From Promethearchaeota archaeon (lineage in GTDB: Archaea > Asgardarchaeota > Lokiarchaeia > Sigyniarchaeales > SOKP01): 64,000 nucleotides of DNA. The position numbers were made by a program, and so were the translations under genes. This document shows positions 36,216-42,890 of this stretch, in pieces (the first letter of the stretch is position 1; every line of letters starts with the position of its first letter). A model generated the notes under the pieces. It did no database searches. It had not been told where the DNA came from and saw only the letters and a program-made list of their open reading frames with translations. The DNA lies in the NCBI GenBank assembly GCA_048941285.1, contig JBHLNS010000013.1, positions 1 through 64,000 of the forward strand. Direction: 5' to 3'.

Positions 36216-37640
36216 TTAAATTAATTTCCAATTAGGCCCATCCGGAGTGTCTTCAAGCTGAATTCCCGCTCTTCTCAATTTTTCTCTAATTTCATCACTT
36301 AGTTTATAATTTTTTGCTTTCCTGGCTTTATCACGGATATCTATTATAATAGCCATTAATTCACTTAATGTTACATCAGTAGCTGCTTCTCGTTTATTGA
36401 AATCAAGCCCAAAAACAGTTAAAAGCTCAAGCAGCGTTTTTTTTGCCGAATTAAGAATTTCGGATTTGTTGTCTAAAGAGCTATTAATTTTTTTTATAAA
36501 CTCGTAGATTGTAGCAAGAGCTTTAGGATTATTGAAATCATCATCCATTGCGGAGTTAAAGTCTTTTTTTACATTTTCTATTGCTTCTATAAGATTATCT
36601 TCAACTCCACCAGATGAATTAGCTATTGCATTTAAACAATTTTTTATTTTTTCAATATTATTTTTTGCATTCTCAATAACTTGGGGATTCCAATCCACTG
36701 CAGATCTATAATGTCCAGACACAAGCCCCATTCTTACAATAAGTCCTCCATATTCATCAATTAACTCGCGGGCAGTAACATAGTTTCCAAGGCTTTTACT
36801 CATTTTTTTGCCATTTAAAGTAATAAATTCCGCATGCATCCAATAATTTACAAATTTTTTTCCTGTAGCGGCTTCAGATTGGGCAATTTCATTAGGATGA
36901 TGAGTAGGAATATGATCAATACCGCCACCATGAATATCCAGTGTTTCTCCTAAATATTTCATACCCATGACGGAACATTCAAGATGCCATCCAGGATAAC
37001 CCTCCCCCCAAGGAGAATTCCATCGCATAATATGGATTTGATCTCCTTTTTGGGCATTTAACCATAATGCGAAATCAAAATAATTCTTTTTTAATGGATC
37101 TTGAGCCACACGGGCTTGTGCTTTTTCTTCATCAAGCTTTAATCTTGCGAGTTTCCCATAATCTTCGAATTTCGTAGTATCATAATATACATTACCTTCT
37201 ACTTCATAAGCATAACCTTTTTTTAGCAAAATTTTGATAATTTCAATCATATCGGGGATAACAGCCGTTGCTCTAGGAGATATATTAGGTCTTTGAATGT
37301 TTAAATCATCAATTACTTGCCAATATTCTTTAATTTGTTTATCGACTAGTTCCCAAGGATTTATTTTTTTTTCTCGTGCTCTTTTTTCAATTTTATCTTC
37401 TCCTTGATCTTCATCATCAGTTAAATGACCTACATCAGTGAAGTTTTGAACATGGAATACGTTATAACCTTTGTATCTTAAGTATCTAATAACCACATCC
37501 CATGAACTATATGTCCTGGCATTTCCGATATGCACATCATCATATACAGTTTGCCCACATGTATAGATTCGAACTCGACCTTCCTCTATTGGTTTAAAAA
37601 CCTCCTTTTGTCGAGTCATGGTGTTATAGATTTTAAGCAT
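36216..37640 (-). CDS. cysS: Cysteinyl-tRNA synthetase
   Basis: YTCG.TVY, HIGN, GYPGWHLECS, KMSKS. Confidence 0.97.
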   Translation of the reverse strand: MLKIYNTMTRQKEVFKPIEEGRVRIYTCGQTVYDDVHIGNARTYSSWDVVIRYLRYKGYNVFHVQNFTDVGHLTDDEDQGEDKIEKRAREKKINPWELVDKQIKEYWQVIDDLNIQRPNISPRATAVIPDMIEIIKILLKKGYAYEVEGNVYYDTTKFEDYGKLARLKLDEEKAQARVAQDPLKKNYFDFALWLNAQKGDQIHIMRWNSPWGEGYPGWHLECSVMGMKYLGETLDIHGGGIDHIPTHHPNEIAQSEAATGKKFVNYWMHAEFITLNGKKMSKSLGNYVTARELIDEYGGLIVRMGLVSGHYRSAVDWNPQVIENAKNNIEKIKNCLNAIANSSGGVEDNLIEAIENVKKDFNSAMDDDFNNPKALATIYEFIKKINSSLDNKSEILNSAKKTLLELLTVFGLDFNKREAATDVTLSELMAIIIDIRDKARKAKNYKLSDEIREKLRRAGIQLEDTPDGPNWKLI

Positions 37641-37717: not shown

Positions 37718-40582
37718 CTAAATTTTTACTTCAATATATGCCTCAATGAGTTTATTATCGATTTTCAATATCTTCGGTTCTTTCTTACCTTCCATTTTTT
37801 GAATAATGCTATTAGCTTGAACCATCTTCTTGATATATTCTTCATGTTTCTCAACTGCTTCTGAAATAACTTTATCATTAATTTGTAAATATAAAGTGAT
37901 TCGATTTTTCGTTGAGAGATTGAGTTGTTTTCTGTAATTATTCAAATGTCTGATTAGATTTCTTACGATACCTTCCGATCTTAATGACGGTGTAATTTTG
38001 GTATTTAAATCTACAATAAGTTCTGCATCATCTCTTTTTTGAAGAGTTACCTTTTTAACATTTATAGCATCAGCTACAATTTTTAAATATTCATTTTCGA
38101 GGGTTACTCCTTGCAGTCTAACCTCACTTAAGACTTGTCTCACTGGAATTTTAGCGTTATCTCTTAATTCAAACGATCTTTTTACTATATCCCTTGTTAA
38201 TTCCATGTTTCTAATAGCTTCATTATCAATTAATTCTGTATCATATTCCGGCCAAAACTCTAAATGAACCGATTCTAAACTAACAATTCCTCTTTCGCTC
38301 AATTTCTGATATATCATCTCAGAAATAAATGGAGTTAAAGGAGCTAAAAGTTTTGCTAAATTTTTTAATACATACGACAACGTATTCACTGCTGCTGATT
38401 TTTCATTAATCTCTGCACTTTTAAATCGATTTCTGCTGTTTTTAATATACCATGTGGAGAGATCTTCAATAAAATTGAAAATTAATCTACTGAACTCTGC
38501 TGTGTCATAATCATCCATTAGTTGCGTACCTTCTTTTATTAGCCTATTTAATAAACTAACAATCCATCGATCTAAGATATTATCTGAATATATTTTATCT
38601 GCATTAAACTTATCAATATTAGCCATTGAGTAAAACTTTAGAACATTAATCATCAATAAATTGAATCTTCTGTAGATTTGTTTCACTAATTCCTCTTTAA
38701 AGCTTAAATCTTGTGCCCTCATTAGTTGAGATGACATAAGATAAATCCTTAAAGCGTCAGCTCCATATTTTTCTATGATTAGATTTGGATCTGGATAATT
38801 TTTTTTGGATTTTGACATTTTAGTTCCGTCTTCGCCAAGTAAATTACCATTTACGACAACATTTTTAAAAGGAATATTATCAAATAGCAGAATTGATATT
38901 ACATGCATATAGTAAAACCATGCTCTTACCTGACCAATATACTCTGACACAAAATCACTCGGAAAATTTTTTTCAAACCAGTCAATATTTTCAAAAGGGT
39001 AATGTTTTGCAGCATACGGCATTGAACCCGATTCCAACCAACAGTCAAATACCTCTGATATACGATTCATAATTTTACTGCAACTTGAACATCTAAGATG
39101 TATTTTATCAACTATGTGTCTGTGTAAATCCAGATCATCTTCAACTTCTTCTATTGCATTATCTTGTAATTCTTTCACTGATCCAATTACTTTTATTTCA
39201 TTACATTCCTCACATTCCCATACGGGCATTGCTGTCGCCCAAAACCGATTTCTTGAAATACACCAATCAGGAGCTGTTTCTATTATCTTTTGATATCTAT
39301 AAGAAATTTCTTTAGGATACCAGTTTATAATTTTATTGGTTTTTAGGAGTTTTGGTTTTATTTTTTGAATGTTTATAAACCAAGCATCAAGAGCATTATA
39401 AATTAAGGGTGTATTACATCTATAACAGAAAGGATATGAATGTGTGTAATCTTCTGATTCGTATATAAGATTCCGACGATGTAGATCAACCAAGACTTCT
39501 TCATCTAAATCTTTAAACCATAATCCAATCCATTCTTTAGGGCCATCAGTCAATTTGCCATGCTCATCAATATGTTGAATTACTGGAAGATCATACTTAT
39601 TTATCATATCATAATCATATTCACCATAAAGTGCAATATGTATTATTCCTGTTCCTTCATCAGATAAGACTTCATCACCACCATCTATAACAATATGGCC
39701 TTTTTTGTCGCTTTTAGTAGAAATATAGTATAAAGGTTTATACCTTTTATTTAATAACGCTTTTCCTTTAAATTCTTTAATTATTTCATATTCCTCATTG
39801 ATGATTTCTAATTTATTTTTTATTAAGATTAAATATTCACCATCAACTTCTATTTTAACATATGGTTGATTACTATTTACAGCTAGAGCTACATTTCCGA
39901 TTAAAGTCCAAGGAGTTGTAGTCCATGCTAAAAGAAATGTCTTTGGTTCTTCTTTTAATTCAAATTTTGCTGTAATAGATTGTTCAGTAACTTCCCTATA
40001 ACTATTATCCATAGAAATTTCAAAATTAGAAAGCGGGGTTTCACACCTTGGACAATAAAACAATACTTTTTTACCTTTATAGACAAAACCCTCCATATAA
40101 ATCTTCTTAAAAATATACCACACAGTTTCCATATACGTATTATCCATAGTTTTGTATGAATTATCAAATTCTATCCACTTACCCATTCGTTCAACAGTTT
40201 TTTTCCACTCATTAGCATACCAAAGTACTTTTGATCGACAAAATTCGTTAAATTCTTCTACACCCATCTGATAAATTTCATTCTTCTGCTTTATATTTAA
40301 AGCTTTTTCACAAACACTTTCTATAGGAAGCCCATGACAATCCCAACCCCATTTCCTCTCACAACGTTGCCCTTTCATTGTCCAATATCTTGGGAATACA
40401 TCCTTTGTTACAATACTTAATATATTACCATGTTGAGGTAATCCAGTGGCAAATGGAGGCCCGTCATAAAATATATAAGGAATACCTTTAGGTCTATGCT
40501 CCACACTTTTTTCAAATATTTTGCTATCCTTCCAAAATTTTATTAGTTCTATTTCCTTTTCAATATATGATATTTTAAACAC
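37718..40582 (-). CDS. ileS: Isoleucyl-tRNA synthetase (type 2) with non-canonical HIGH motif QHGN
   Basis: FYDGPPFATGLP, GWDCHGLP, WTTTPWTL, WCISRNRFW, KMSKS. Confidence 0.95.
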   Translation of the reverse strand: MFKISYIEKEIELIKFWKDSKIFEKSVEHRPKGIPYIFYDGPPFATGLPQHGNILSIVTKDVFPRYWTMKGQRCERKWGWDCHGLPIESVCEKALNIKQKNEIYQMGVEEFNEFCRSKVLWYANEWKKTVERMGKWIEFDNSYKTMDNTYMETVWYIFKKIYMEGFVYKGKKVLFYCPRCETPLSNFEISMDNSYREVTEQSITAKFELKEEPKTFLLAWTTTPWTLIGNVALAVNSNQPYVKIEVDGEYLILIKNKLEIINEEYEIIKEFKGKALLNKRYKPLYYISTKSDKKGHIVIDGGDEVLSDEGTGIIHIALYGEYDYDMINKYDLPVIQHIDEHGKLTDGPKEWIGLWFKDLDEEVLVDLHRRNLIYESEDYTHSYPFCYRCNTPLIYNALDAWFINIQKIKPKLLKTNKIINWYPKEISYRYQKIIETAPDWCISRNRFWATAMPVWECEECNEIKVIGSVKELQDNAIEEVEDDLDLHRHIVDKIHLRCSSCSKIMNRISEVFDCWLESGSMPYAAKHYPFENIDWFEKNFPSDFVSEYIGQVRAWFYYMHVISILLFDNIPFKNVVVNGNLLGEDGTKMSKSKKNYPDPNLIIEKYGADALRIYLMSSQLMRAQDLSFKEELVKQIYRRFNLLMINVLKFYSMANIDKFNADKIYSDNILDRWIVSLLNRLIKEGTQLMDDYDTAEFSRLIFNFIEDLSTWYIKNSRNRFKSAEINEKSAAVNTLSYVLKNLAKLLAPLTPFISEMIYQKLSERGIVSLESVHLEFWPEYDTELIDNEAIRNMELTRDIVKRSFELRDNAKIPVRQVLSEVRLQGVTLENEYLKIVADAINVKKVTLQKRDDAELIVDLNTKITPSLRSEGIVRNLIRHLNNYRKQLNLSTKNRITLYLQINDKVISEAVEKHEEYIKKMVQANSIIQKMEGKKEPKILKIDNKLIEAYIEVKI

Positions 40583-40833
40583 CTATCCTACTTATTTTCT
40601 CTAATCTCAATCTTTTTAACTTAAAAATATTAAAAAATAATTTAATTAACATAATTTAGTTTATATCATAAATGTCGAGAGCTTTATTCATGAAGCAGGA
40701 TGTGGAGGTAAAAGCTAAGAAAATTCACTTCACAAATAAATGAATTTAGATAATAATAATCGTGGATATGATCATAATCATATTTTTCACAAAACCTAAG
40801 AATTTACTAACAATATTCATAGCATCCACATCC
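40580..40833 (-). promoter_or_regulatory. Putative attenuator leader of ileS with anti-SD element
   Basis: AUCCUGCUU (40701-40693) can pair with the SD region AAGUAGGAU (40593-40585); the overlapping UCCACAUCC (40706-40698) can instead pair with upstream GGAUGUGGA (40833-40825). Confidence 0.55.
40746..40820 (-). CDS. Putative Ile-rich leader peptide of ileS (MNIVSKFLGFVKNMIMIISTIIII)
   Basis: ATG at 40820, TAA at 40746-40748; 7 of the last 10 sense codons are Ile; lies directly upstream of ileS. Alternative starts at 40790 (GTG) and 40781 (ATG). Confidence 0.65.
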   Translation of the reverse strand: MNIVSKFLGFVKNMIMIISTIIII

Positions 40834-40901
40834 ACTTTATATTTTAAATAAGGTAAAATACTCTAAAAAATATTACGGTATTTTATCATTTTTTTTAAAC
40901 T

Positions 40902-42890
40902 TTAATCCAAAAATATATAGTGATGAGCAATTTTTCTTTTGTCTCTTCCAGCAAGAATATGAATATGTTTAATAGCTTTAAGAGAGTCTTTGCTAAAATT
41001 GTCGATTGAAATATAAACAAGTTCTCGATTTTTGATTCCAGCAAGTGAATAAAAATATTTGCGAGGGGGTTCTTTTGCAATATAAGCTACATATCGTTCT
41101 TTGGAATAAATAATAGCAGCTTTAAGCAAGCGTTCTGCTTTATTCTTTGTATCTTTATACTCATAGTCCAAATATGGGTCAAAAAGGGATCTGAGAAAAA
41201 TCGCTGGAAAAATCGAAAGTAATCCTCCAACTTCTACATGGGTAATCCCTGGACCAATGATAAAATCTCCCGGATTTGTTGAATAGAATGCCATATCGCT
41301 CTCTCTATCATGTTCTGCCCACCAAGTTAATTTATATGGAAAATATTCTTTTTCTCCATCGTCTTTATCAAATATAACTACAATTGTGTCGATTTTACCT
41401 TGAACTTGTTGAATGTTTTGCACGTAAATCTTCTTTTTAAAAGCCCAATTTCTAATAGTTTCTTTAATTGCAATTCCGTCCATTAAGCTGGATTTGAATT
41501 CCTCTATTTTAATTCTCTGATTTTTCAAATTTTTAATTGTTTTTTTTCTTATAAAAGCAAAATAATCCTCTTCTAAAGCATCCTCAGGAGGCCACGAAAC
41601 AGTATATTCTTTACCTTCTTCCCATCTATCTCTCCATTCCCCGGGATATTTTTCTTCAGGTTTTTTCTTTAAAGGCAATTCTCTCTCTTTTCCATAGTTA
41701 TAAGGAAGATGTCTTCTTAATTTTATATATCGACCACTAGGATCATACCCACCTTCCAATGACATCTTCAGAGTTTCATAATTATCACTTTCATCATTAT
41801 ATGGATATTTTGTAGCTTTATCCAATACTTTCCACGCATAATCATCGTCAACTATATTTTTTGATGCGATTAATAATTGAAATAAATTTGGTAGTAATCT
41901 CTGTTCCGTTAATGAAAGATTCCTTGAATATTGAAATAATGTTTTTAATTTATGGAGATCCACAAATTCTTTAAATTCTTCCTCAAAATCATATTTAGCT
42001 TTGATCAAAATTTTTCTAATATGCTCAATTTTATCAAACCGGTTAAATATTTTATAAAGTTCTTCGAGAGAATCAACCCTTTCTAATCTTTCTTTAGAAA
42101 ATTCTTCTTTAAATTTCAACCACCTATAGGTATGATATGGTAATTCTCTCAAAAGATACCTAGCGTCACCACTTCTTATGTTATAAATCTTTACGTATTT
42201 ATGAGGAATTAAATCTAATTCTACTTCTTGAACCTGCTCTGGGTTTTCTAAGTAATATTTTACGTTTTCCCAATGAGCCATACCAATAATAAGTAAAATT
42301 CTATGGTATATAGGCATCATTTTTAATAGATGAGCTGCCATATATTTTTCTCTAAGAATATCTTTTTGAATATAATCATACTCTTTATCATCTTTTAACT
42401 GGTTTTTAAGAAAATCTTTTAAGATTACTTCTTTGTTGGGAATATCTTTTCTATTCTTAGATTTCTTTATAAAATAATCAGATATTTGATGATAAAACTC
42501 TTGAAGACCGATTTGATTAATAGCATAATCATCTGGAAGTTTGAAACTTGGAGGTAAATACTCTGAGATGGAAAGATCAATAAATTCGATCGGAATATTA
42601 TAATCAACACCAATCTTTATTGCTTCCATAACTGAATCACCCGGATCTATTGGAATAAAATTTAATTTTTCTGGATTTAAGCTATCAGCATATCCAATTA
42701 AAGATAGAAAAGGTAATCTCTGGACAGCTTCAATCACTTCTTCTTGTATATTATTAGGTAATTCAACAGCGATTACATCCGGAAATACTTTAAATAATGC
42801 TATACGGACTAATTTAGCAAACTCTATTCGCGAATGGAATGTGGGAATGACATAGATATTTCTAAATTTAATATAGGGATTCTCATCCAT
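40902..42890 (-). CDS. Conserved hypothetical protein with TraB/EreA-ChaN-like N-terminal domain, partner of the MoxR ATPase
   Basis: PTFH...PDVIAVELP, REKYMA, IIGMAHW; starts 1 bp after the ATPase gene stop. Confidence 0.55.
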   Translation of the reverse strand: MDENPYIKFRNIYVIPTFHSRIEFAKLVRIALFKVFPDVIAVELPNNIQEEVIEAVQRLPFLSLIGYADSLNPEKLNFIPIDPGDSVMEAIKIGVDYNIPIEFIDLSISEYLPPSFKLPDDYAINQIGLQEFYHQISDYFIKKSKNRKDIPNKEVILKDFLKNQLKDDKEYDYIQKDILREKYMAAHLLKMMPIYHRILLIIGMAHWENVKYYLENPEQVQEVELDLIPHKYVKIYNIRSGDARYLLRELPYHTYRWLKFKEEFSKERLERVDSLEELYKIFNRFDKIEHIRKILIKAKYDFEEEFKEFVDLHKLKTLFQYSRNLSLTEQRLLPNLFQLLIASKNIVDDDYAWKVLDKATKYPYNDESDNYETLKMSLEGGYDPSGRYIKLRRHLPYNYGKERELPLKKKPEEKYPGEWRDRWEEGKEYTVSWPPEDALEEDYFAFIRKKTIKNLKNQRIKIEEFKSSLMDGIAIKETIRNWAFKKKIYVQNIQQVQGKIDTIVVIFDKDDGEKEYFPYKLTWWAEHDRESDMAFYSTNPGDFIIGPGITHVEVGGLLSIFPAIFLRSLFDPYLDYEYKDTKNKAERLLKAAIIYSKERYVAYIAKEPPRKYFYSLAGIKNRELVYISIDNFSKDSLKAIKHIHILAGRDKRKIAHHYIFLD

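Follow-up and report, generated by a model that had tools for sequence, protein, structure and literature searches.

The locus and its leader

What controls an isoleucyl-tRNA synthetase gene whose 5' flank carries a short reading frame ending in a run of isoleucine codons? The question is raised by a stretch of 64,000 nt from a Promethearchaeota archaeon (contig JBHLNS010000013.1, positions 1 to 64,000), referred to here as the window. On its minus strand the synthetase gene, designated ileS-B, is separated by a gap of 319 bp (40583-40901) from an upstream open reading frame (ORF) of 662 aa; the gap runs from the GTG of the ileS ORF at 40582 to the stop of the upstream ORF at 40902. A small upstream ORF (uORF) lies in this gap. 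An earlier examination of the window, the sequence-only reading, had put this uORF forward as the candidate leader peptide of a ribosome-mediated attenuator, and its letters and coordinates for the gap, the uORF, the pairing segments and a hairpin were all reproduced on the window sequence. Ile accounts for seven of the last ten uORF codons, with ATT, ATC and ATA all present.

37718..40582, minus strand: ileS-B, accessory isoleucyl-tRNA synthetase of about 954 aa (TIGR00392, 810 bits against a cut-off of 621)
40746..40820, minus strand: leader uORF, 24 codons plus stop, MNIVSKFLGFVKNMIMIISTIIII; ATG at 40820, TAA at 40748-40746
40749..40760, minus strand: putative regulatory Ile codons ATT ATT ATT ATC, with the TAA stop (40748-40746) directly after

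The uORF is likely, if by no means certain, to encode a leader peptide through which the supply of charged tRNA-Ile is read out by an RNA switch controlling ileS-B in cis, together with the downstream gene cysS in one of two genera. Comparison of orthologous leaders reveals a conserved uORF, its codon run and geometry, and covariation for three pairings, termed A:B, A:C and E; from these we infer that the frame is translated, that ribosomes stall on it and that ileS is affected.

Conservation of the leader and signs of translation

In total, 39 leaders were compared, consisting of 36 distinct leaders and three more from genus g22; all come from two genera (g1 and g22) of one family. Two loci were kept out of the alignments: L069 (genome G089), a spurious match, and L066 (genome G088), a partial remnant. 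A uORF was present before ileS-B in 39 of 39 leaders across the two Asgard genera, which bears out the expectation, raised from the window alone, that an Ile-rich uORF would be conserved in orthologous Asgard ileS leaders. Every uORF was 20-25 codons long and started with ATG, except for a GTG in one leader. The peptides ended in IIII, IIIII, IIIR, IIIG, IIIS, IIIN, IIIE, IIIK, IIIQ or III; thus all 39 held at least three consecutive Ile, 0-1 codon ahead of the stop, and the run always included at least three AUU. The sequence ATTATTATT in the Ile run was invariant across the 39 leaders.

Among 400 genomes of the phylum, 38 carry ileS-B and all 38 have the uORF leader. A BLAST search with the leader core against 135 genomes of the family gave matches in 33 of 53 g1 genomes and eight of 42 g22 genomes; a further match (G000:C32:3715-3760) was rejected as chance similarity inside other sequence. 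The uORF was retained where the upstream neighbour gene differs.

Across the uORF span, the coding frame was open in all 36 leaders tested and neither alternative frame in any of them. Indels within the uORF were of 3, 6 or 12 nt only, all multiples of three, and the N-terminal half of the peptide was variable. In two leaders (L056 and L060) the last Ile is replaced by Arg and the preceding Thr by Ile; this Thr to Ile change next to the lost Ile keeps four consecutive Ile. Over the last six codons of the 36 uORFs, Ile was encoded by ATT 112 times, by ATC 20 times and by ATA twice (2 of 134). Genome-wide, ATT, ATC and ATA make up 53, 13 and 34% of Ile codons, against the near-absence of ATA in uORF ends. 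The ATT/ATC bias points to a tRNA reading AUU/AUC or to a nucleotide constraint.

Leader-peptide attenuators are recognised by a run of cognate codons in an ORF of the 5' leader and by a frame that is kept while most of the peptide varies, and both features were found here. Together these patterns support a conserved, translated-looking ORF rich in cognate Ile codons before ileS.

Chance occurrence of Ile runs and a leucine-rich leader at leuS

The window genome has a G+C content of 29.7%, and 4035 intergenic small ORFs (sORFs) of 12-50 aa starting with ATG were found in it. Terminal IIII occurred in three of these, and at least seven Ile in the last ten codons in the ileS-B uORF only. A looser rule retained 107 sORFs: the final seven codons had to contain three identical residues, and a gene of 150 aa or more had to lie within 450 nt. 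Ile runs were carried by 29 of them, so composition proves nothing, as had been cautioned for ATT runs in AT-rich intergenic DNA. Twenty of the 107 run-bearing sORFs were annotated, 13 of them with Ile runs; these 13, out of 28 Ile-run sORFs other than the ileS-B uORF, all precede genes unrelated to Ile. A cognate match among the 20 was found only at leuS. The other 19 precede unrelated genes, including MFS transporters, Ras-family GTPases, a PAS kinase and a P-type ATPase. Taken by itself the window genome does not exclude a chance origin of the Ile-run uORF; chance is excluded because all 39 orthologous leaders retain both the uORF and the Ile run.

At leuS, which is single in the window genome (TIGR00395, 940 bits), a Leu-rich uORF of 28 codons ending in ...LLAVLLLF (MISNKTALRMNIIEKTLLVNLLAVLLLF) lies about 165 nt before the gene (G000:C90; L070 2877-3130, minus strand). 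The Leu-rich end was kept in 25 of 25 loci examined, and BLAST matches were found in 44 of 54 genomes of the genus. A hairpin that begins at the stop codon of the Leu uORF encloses U5, U4 and U4 tracts and is followed by CCAC. A candidate cognate leader before another synthetase gene, of the kind that the sequence-only reading proposed to look for, was thus found at leuS.

Elements of the probable RNA switch and their covariation

Seven RNA elements were delimited around the uORF and its 3' side.

40825..40835, minus strand: element A (GTGGATGTGGA), switch arm and probable Shine-Dalgarno (SD) region of the uORF
40762..40771, minus strand: element B (TCATATCCAC), uORF codons 17-20, ending 1 nt ahead of the Ile run; proximal partner of A
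40698..40706, minus strand: element C (TCCACATCC), distal partner of A, adjoining the 3' arm of helix E
40726..40739, minus strand: helix E 5' arm (TTATTTGTGAAGTG), beginning 7 nt past the uORF stop codon (RNAalifold)
40707..40725, minus strand: helix E loop with two U4 tracts (AATTTTCTTAGCTTTTACC)
40684..40697, minus strand: helix E 3' arm (TGCTTCATGAATAA) (RNAalifold and pairing counts)
40723..40745, minus strand: hairpin D (ATTCATTT/AAGTGAAT), directly past the stop; weak, and unable to coexist with E

Just 5' of the uORF start, the element GUGGAUGUGGA has two possible partners, namely the codons before the Ile run (A:B) or UCCACAUCC 120 nt downstream (A:C). In the window, GGATGTGGA (40833-40825) is the exact complement of TCCACATCC (40706-40698) and can also pair with ATATCCAC at 40769-40762. 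Within element A, GGATGTGG was invariant in 39 of 39 leaders, and the spacing from element A to the DGPPFATG codons was fixed at 328-372 nt in 36 leaders. RNAalifold, applied to 14 full leaders, returned two helices, A:B as GUGGAUGUGG:UCAUAUCCAC and E as UUAUUUGUGAAGUG:UGCUUCAUGAAUAA; element C (UCCACAUCC) sits in the E loop.

Pairing was counted over 36 aligned sequences, for which slid controls were 37-53% paired. A:B was paired in 96.3% of cells; three pairs had changed on both sides, and G:U had given way to G:C in 11 of the 36. A:C was paired in 99.1% of cells, with two pairs changed on both sides (G:C to A:U in L068 and A:U to U:A in L062). Helix E was paired in 93.6% of cells and had five pairs changed on both sides. 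The hairpin after the uORF stop that the sequence-only reading had picked out, hairpin D, proved the weakest element: 86.1% of cells were paired, one pair covaried, pair 106:120 was broken in 16 of 36 sequences and the mean energy was -0.6 kcal/mol. On these figures, and with U4 absent in g22, hairpin D followed by a U-run was rejected as a general intrinsic terminator.

In leader L068, A carries a G to A substitution and both of its partners, B and C, carry the corresponding C to U, which is what one arm alternating between two partners predicts. The element at 40833-40825, proposed earlier to have alternative partners inside and downstream of the uORF, thus showed compensatory changes in both pairings, and the covariation supports an RNA switch between A:B and A:C.

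The same three segments could instead be operator sites in DNA for a transcription factor. Element A does lie between a TATA-like box (Box 2, described below) and the uORF start, and the triple change in L068 could reflect an altered factor specificity. Against this, some positions at which B and C carry different bases still allow each of them to pair with A by way of G:U (pair 13:74 is G:U in 25 sequences and G:C in 11), and such tolerance of G:U argues for pairing as RNA over sites in DNA. Each of the remaining compensatory changes concerns a single pairing (7:80 and 8:79 for A:B; 17:141 for A:C), and helix E covaries independently, leaving the operator explanation barely plausible.

Alternatively, the helices might form a binding site for a protein or a tRNA, as in autoregulation by the isoleucyl-tRNA synthetase (IleRS) in the manner of thrS or in a T-box-like sensor, with the reading frame incidental or secondary. 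Such regulation is known for bacterial synthetase genes, and conservation is higher in A, B, C and E than over most of the peptide. A search of Rfam over the leader (40000-41500) at E up to 10 returned only best matches of 15-24 bits to unrelated families and no T-box. Since the frame, start, stop and Ile run occur in every leader, with indels in threes, and the same cognate logic recurs at leuS with a different RNA, this explanation is judged highly improbable.

The switch elements were also compared by predicted energy. Mean values were -8.5 kcal/mol for A:B, -11.0 kcal/mol for A:C and -9.7 kcal/mol for E. Of the 36 leaders, 24 had most or all of the A:C pairs in their unconstrained minimum free energy (MFE) fold, and 10 had A:B with E there. 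When the footprint of a ribosome was masked (alignment columns 69-106), A:C pairs were in the MFE fold of 35 of 36 leaders. The 169-nt core of the window had an MFE of -32.2 kcal/mol (z -1.5). A further mark of attenuators is a pair of helices that exclude each other, one arm of which would be covered when a ribosome stalls on the regulatory codons; such helices were found in this leader. A:C and E cross each other, and with loops of about 90 and about 20 nt, which are long enough, they could form a pseudoknot in which the helices are stacked via the continuous strand from C to the E 3' arm; RNAfold cannot score pseudoknots.

A third helix, between the E 3' arm and a downstream ATTTATGA, was seen by eye in some g1 leaders, though not in L004 or g22, and was dropped. 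The word TTCTTAG occurs at 40797-40791 (uORF codons 7-9) and again at 40720-40714 (helix E loop); it is largely conserved at both sites, and a partner or role for it was not found. The remnant L066 (G088:C143:1-3100) holds element B, ATT ATT ATC TAA and the start of helix E, and lacks A and C; its genome, G088, has no ileS-B match. L066 may be a relic left after loss of ileS-B.

The output step

How the switch would act on ileS-B was examined at the ribosome-binding site (RBS) of the gene and in the spacer before it.

40571..40584, minus strand: ileS ribosome-binding region; SD AGGTG at 40584-40580, candidate starts GTG at 40582-40580 or ATA at 40573-40571

The sequence-only reading had proposed that an anti-SD segment buries the ileS RBS. 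In this form of translational attenuation the segment around C would cover the RBS unless a stalled ribosome let A capture C. In the window, TACCTCCACATCCTGCTT at 40710-40693 can pair with AAGTAGGATAGGTG (40593-40580) at -15.4 kcal/mol (RNAduplex), with z -2.4 against shuffles in the window genome, and the C region there contains ACCUCCA, identical to seven bases of the 16S 3' end of the same genus. The duplex was notable only in the window genome, with z from -1.64 to +0.76 in the other 13 orthologues tested, and the SD-proximal partner AAGUAGGAU was not conserved and was deleted in L003 and L047. The unpaired probability of the ileS RBS was 0.40 with the footprint masked and 0.40 without it over 39 leaders (up in six, down in six; 0.41 and 0.41 in the window). 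A conserved helix burying the SD or start of the regulated gene, as in SD-sequestering translational attenuators, was not found, and neither was an intrinsic terminator (hairpin plus U-run) directly before the gene. SD sequestration is not the output step, and the anti-SD model is very improbable. Of the proposed ribosome-mediated leader control of ileS, then, the uORF and the alternative pairings stood, and the release of a sequestered SD did not.

The output is guessed, tentatively and with the balance leaning the other way, to be premature termination or cleavage between leader and ileS. The guess is made because U-tract and CA signals lie in the E loop and in C, whose pairing the switch would change. 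U4 tracts and CA dinucleotides occur in the E loop and element C, and C holds two CA steps. Among the 39 leaders, the E loop had at least one T4 run in 29, at least two in 14 and none in 10. The spacer, otherwise poorly conserved, had at least one run of T4 or longer in 36 of 39 leaders and at least two in 23 of 39. In the available part of its description, aCPSF1/FttA is the general archaeal termination and cleavage factor (PMC7515710). The accessible text on the Methanococcus maripaludis aCPSF1 describes binding to U-tracts, with a minimum of two U4 (PMC8716108), and that on the Pyrococcus enzyme reports that it favours single-stranded CA (PMC3553952). No evidence of aCPSF1/FttA acting on leaders was found in this analysis or in print.

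Promoter-like boxes and the probable ribosome-binding region of the uORF

Three AT-rich boxes were found, two on the 5' side of element A and one before ileS.

40862..40880, minus strand: P1, conserved box resembling a B recognition element and TATA box (TACCGTAATATTTTTTAGA), 42-60 nt ahead of the uORF AUG
40836..40858, minus strand: Box 2, conserved and AT-rich (TTTTACCTTATTTAAAATATAAA), promoter-proximal sequence or alternative TATA box for a leaderless uORF transcript
40620..40641, minus strand: P2, box rich in T6 and T5 (TTATTTTTTAATATTTTTAAG), 47-68 nt ahead of the ileS start

P1 stands at the same distance in orthologous leaders. In this genome the TATA-hexamer peak for leadered genes falls at -61..-52, and P1 is a candidate promoter; a transcript starting from it would have element A at its 5' end. 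A search of sequencing runs listed no RNA run that contains the stretch. Element A itself lies at -13 from the AUG, the position of the genome's peak of SD-like words. In a genome of the same genus the archaeal 16S 3' end reads GGATCACCTCCA, with which A can pair at six of seven positions by our own reading. Ribosomes for the uORF probably bind at A, which would stay free only until B has been transcribed.

P2 is similar to P1, both in its sequence and in how far it stands from the next start codon, and it coincides with the genome's TATA peak for leadered genes. It may be either the TATA box of ileS itself or an oligo-U terminator or attenuation site. In the former case ileS may be transcribed from a promoter of its own, to which regulated read-through from the leader would be added. 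The sequence-only reading had found the uORF and the switch elements, which were borne out, and had missed that this ileS is a second, accessory copy with a TATA-like box of its own.

The boxes raise a different possibility, that the uORF is an independent small gene with its own promoter and end, encoding a hydrophobic 24-aa peptide or a dual-function small RNA, which is linked to ileS-B by function or history and exerts no control on it in cis. P1 and P2 do resemble two promoters of the same kind, each 42-68 nt ahead of a start codon; the spacer between E and ileS is poorly conserved and its T-runs could end an upstream transcript; and a conserved expression platform was not found. An independent gene is nevertheless improbable: the N-terminal half of the peptide varies while constraint falls on the Ile codons and pairing bases, in 39 of 39 leaders the uORF keeps its orientation and its distance to ileS-B, a cognate match is found again at leuS, and the candidate for pairing in trans, C with the ileS RBS, is not conserved.

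Proposed mechanism

Control of ileS-B in cis by a leader peptide would proceed as follows. The transcript would start a few bases 5' of A, which would double as the SD region of the uORF, and a first ribosome would load ahead of the synthesis of B. When Ile-tRNA is plentiful, this ribosome would pass the three or four AUU/AUC codons, terminate and leave, freeing B; A:B would then form and C would be exposed in the E loop. When Ile-tRNA is scarce, the ribosome would stall on the Ile run with its footprint over B and with the E 5' arm free. A would then pair with the emerging C, giving A:C stacked on E. The two folds would act as a one-shot latch, committing transcripts to different fates.

Several observations weigh against this account. 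Ile-run sORFs are common in this 30% G+C genome. The sequences compared are related, and the compensatory changes represent about five events. A:C is already present in 24 of 36 unconstrained MFE folds, meaning that the two states are near isoenergetic and that the model rests on kinetics. The TTTAAA of Box 2 is at -28 from the uORF AUG, near the genome's leaderless peak of -29/-30, and fits a leaderless transcript without element A. P2 may mean that ileS is transcribed on its own and that the leader is a separate unit. RNAalifold found no conserved helix in the 3' half of the leader, neither one sequestering the SD nor a terminator hairpin. U-tracts are absent from the E loop in 10 of 39 leaders and from the spacer in three of 39, and are missing in part of g22.

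The Ile-sensing leader peptide and RNA switch are, all the same, well supported by the comparison among orthologues. A bolder version appears unlikely, though worth stating: the latch fold would decide whether aCPSF1/FttA cuts the transcript before an accessory, possibly inhibitor-insensitive ileS, which would make this the first archaeal factor-dependent leader-peptide attenuator and one of a wider set that includes leuS.

The gene behind the leader, its paralogue and neighbours

A second ileS (G000:C10:5996-9142; L030 1456-4602) encodes 1048 aa, scores 816 bits with TIGR00392 and is 32% identical to the window ileS. Where relatives lack the 954-aa type, the ileS found in them is of the 1048-aa type; no Ile-run uORF was seen by eye in the 300 nt upstream of this canonical 1048-aa gene. 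The 954-aa type (at least 66% identity) was restricted, among the 400 phylum genomes, to two genera of one family, occurring in 28 of 53 g1 and nine of 42 g22 genomes plus the window genome, 38 genomes in total. The nearest relatives of the ileS-B product were in metagenome-assembled genomes (MAGs) of Lokiarchaeota, Thorarchaeota, Hodarchaeota, Hermodarchaeota and Promethearchaeota, followed at 56-57% identity by DPANN archaea.

KMSKS is present in ileS-B. The HIGH position (window 40400-40450, residues ~45-60) reads QHGN in the window and six orthologues, HYGH in 25 others and HYGN in four. The QHGN genes are otherwise well conserved and keep the leader; their products may be enzymes with altered or lost activation chemistry.

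The start codon of ileS-B is probably not the GTG. The G-G-T of the RBS is conserved in nearly all leaders, and in L037 and L044 a TAA directly follows the GTG. At the site of the window ATA, which could be parsed in 30 of 36 orthologues, the codon is ATG in 12, ATT in 15, ATA in two and TTA in one; the ATG of the 12 lies about 10 nt past the conserved GGTG. This suggests a near-cognate AUU or AUA start, with GGUG as the SD, in most of g1.

36216..37640, minus strand: cysS, 77 nt downstream of ileS-B (Pfam tRNA-synt_1e)

cysS followed ileS-B in all 26 g1 loci that reach far enough and in none of four g22 loci. It is probably co-transcribed with ileS-B, and the leader may also govern cysS in g1. 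On the other side, the upstream 662-aa ORF (40902-42890) is the conserved neighbour in most g1 loci; it had no Pfam match and scored 24.6 bits with a TraB-family NCBIfam model, far under the cut-off.

A T-box match below threshold (RF00230; 34 bits and E 1.2e-5 against a gathering score of 93), with a GGUGGUACCGCG box, was found at L100 612-833 (G048:C163) in a further genus of the family. The ileS that follows it encodes 1057 aa; both lie on a contig of 6.8 kb, from a MAG that is 74% complete, and the contig is either bacterial sequence in the bin or the carrier of a transferred bacterial-type ileS with its leader.

Comparison with known systems

In bacteria, ribosome-mediated attenuation is textbook knowledge, and it depends on transcription and translation being coupled. 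Full-text literature searches, supplements apart, returned no report of leader-peptide (ribosome-mediated) attenuation in Archaea. The available portions of PMC1262725, PMC6393860, PMC2965389, PMC3553952 and PMC8716108 had no bearing on it. If the proposed control is real, Archaea gauge tRNA charging with the ribosome itself, in the lineage closest to eukaryotes. The leader would offer a concrete, mutable system for studying the coupling of archaeal transcription, translation and aCPSF1/FttA-type termination, and would suggest how cells turn on accessory synthetase paralogues.

In the E. coli pheM-pheST attenuator a synthetase operon is preceded by a leader peptide rich in Phe; the classical thrL, ilvL, ivbL, leuL, hisL and trpL attenuators are of the same general kind. 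The ileS-B leader is like these in its short leader ORF ending in a cognate run, in conservation that falls on those codons and the RNA arms, and in mutually exclusive helices with one arm in the footprint of the stalled ribosome; as in pheST, the target is a synthetase. It differs from them in its archaeal host and in having no G+C-rich terminator hairpin and U-run before the gene. Its switch would be a 5'-terminal arm choosing a near or a far partner, possibly in a pseudoknot with E, and the gene is separated from the switch by about 110 nt of spacer that is not conserved and by a TATA-like box.

Translational attenuation of the ermC and cat type frees the sequestered SD of a next gene a few bases away. 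There, too, a stalled leader ribosome remodels the leader RNA, as it would here, but ileS-B has no conserved helix burying its SD. Bacillaceae carry paired ileS1 and ileS2 genes, one copy being stress-induced and mupirocin-resistant. The parallel lies in two IleRS genes per genome, with the accessory copy under separate control, while the enzyme lineages and the regulatory device differ.

Bacterial ileS is regulated by T-box leaders, including the translational T-boxes of Actinobacteria, according to the available part of PMC1262725. Unlike the ileS-B leader, a T-box binds uncharged tRNA directly, without a leader peptide, and the Rfam T-box had no match here. The two share the gene, the proposed signal (tRNA-Ile charging) and a cis-acting RNA switch in the 5' leader.

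Rho-dependent attenuation gated by leader translation is known from tnaC, mgtL/mgtA and corL. To our knowledge, Archaea lack Rho. Unlike in these Rho-gated leaders, the candidate factor for ileS-B would be aCPSF1/FttA, as far as the available text of PMC7515710, PMC8716108 and PMC3553952 describes it. In tnaC, mgtL/mgtA and corL, as proposed for the ileS-B leader, translation of the leader ORF or stalling on it alters folding or factor access without an intrinsic terminator, making them the nearest analogue of the suggested output.

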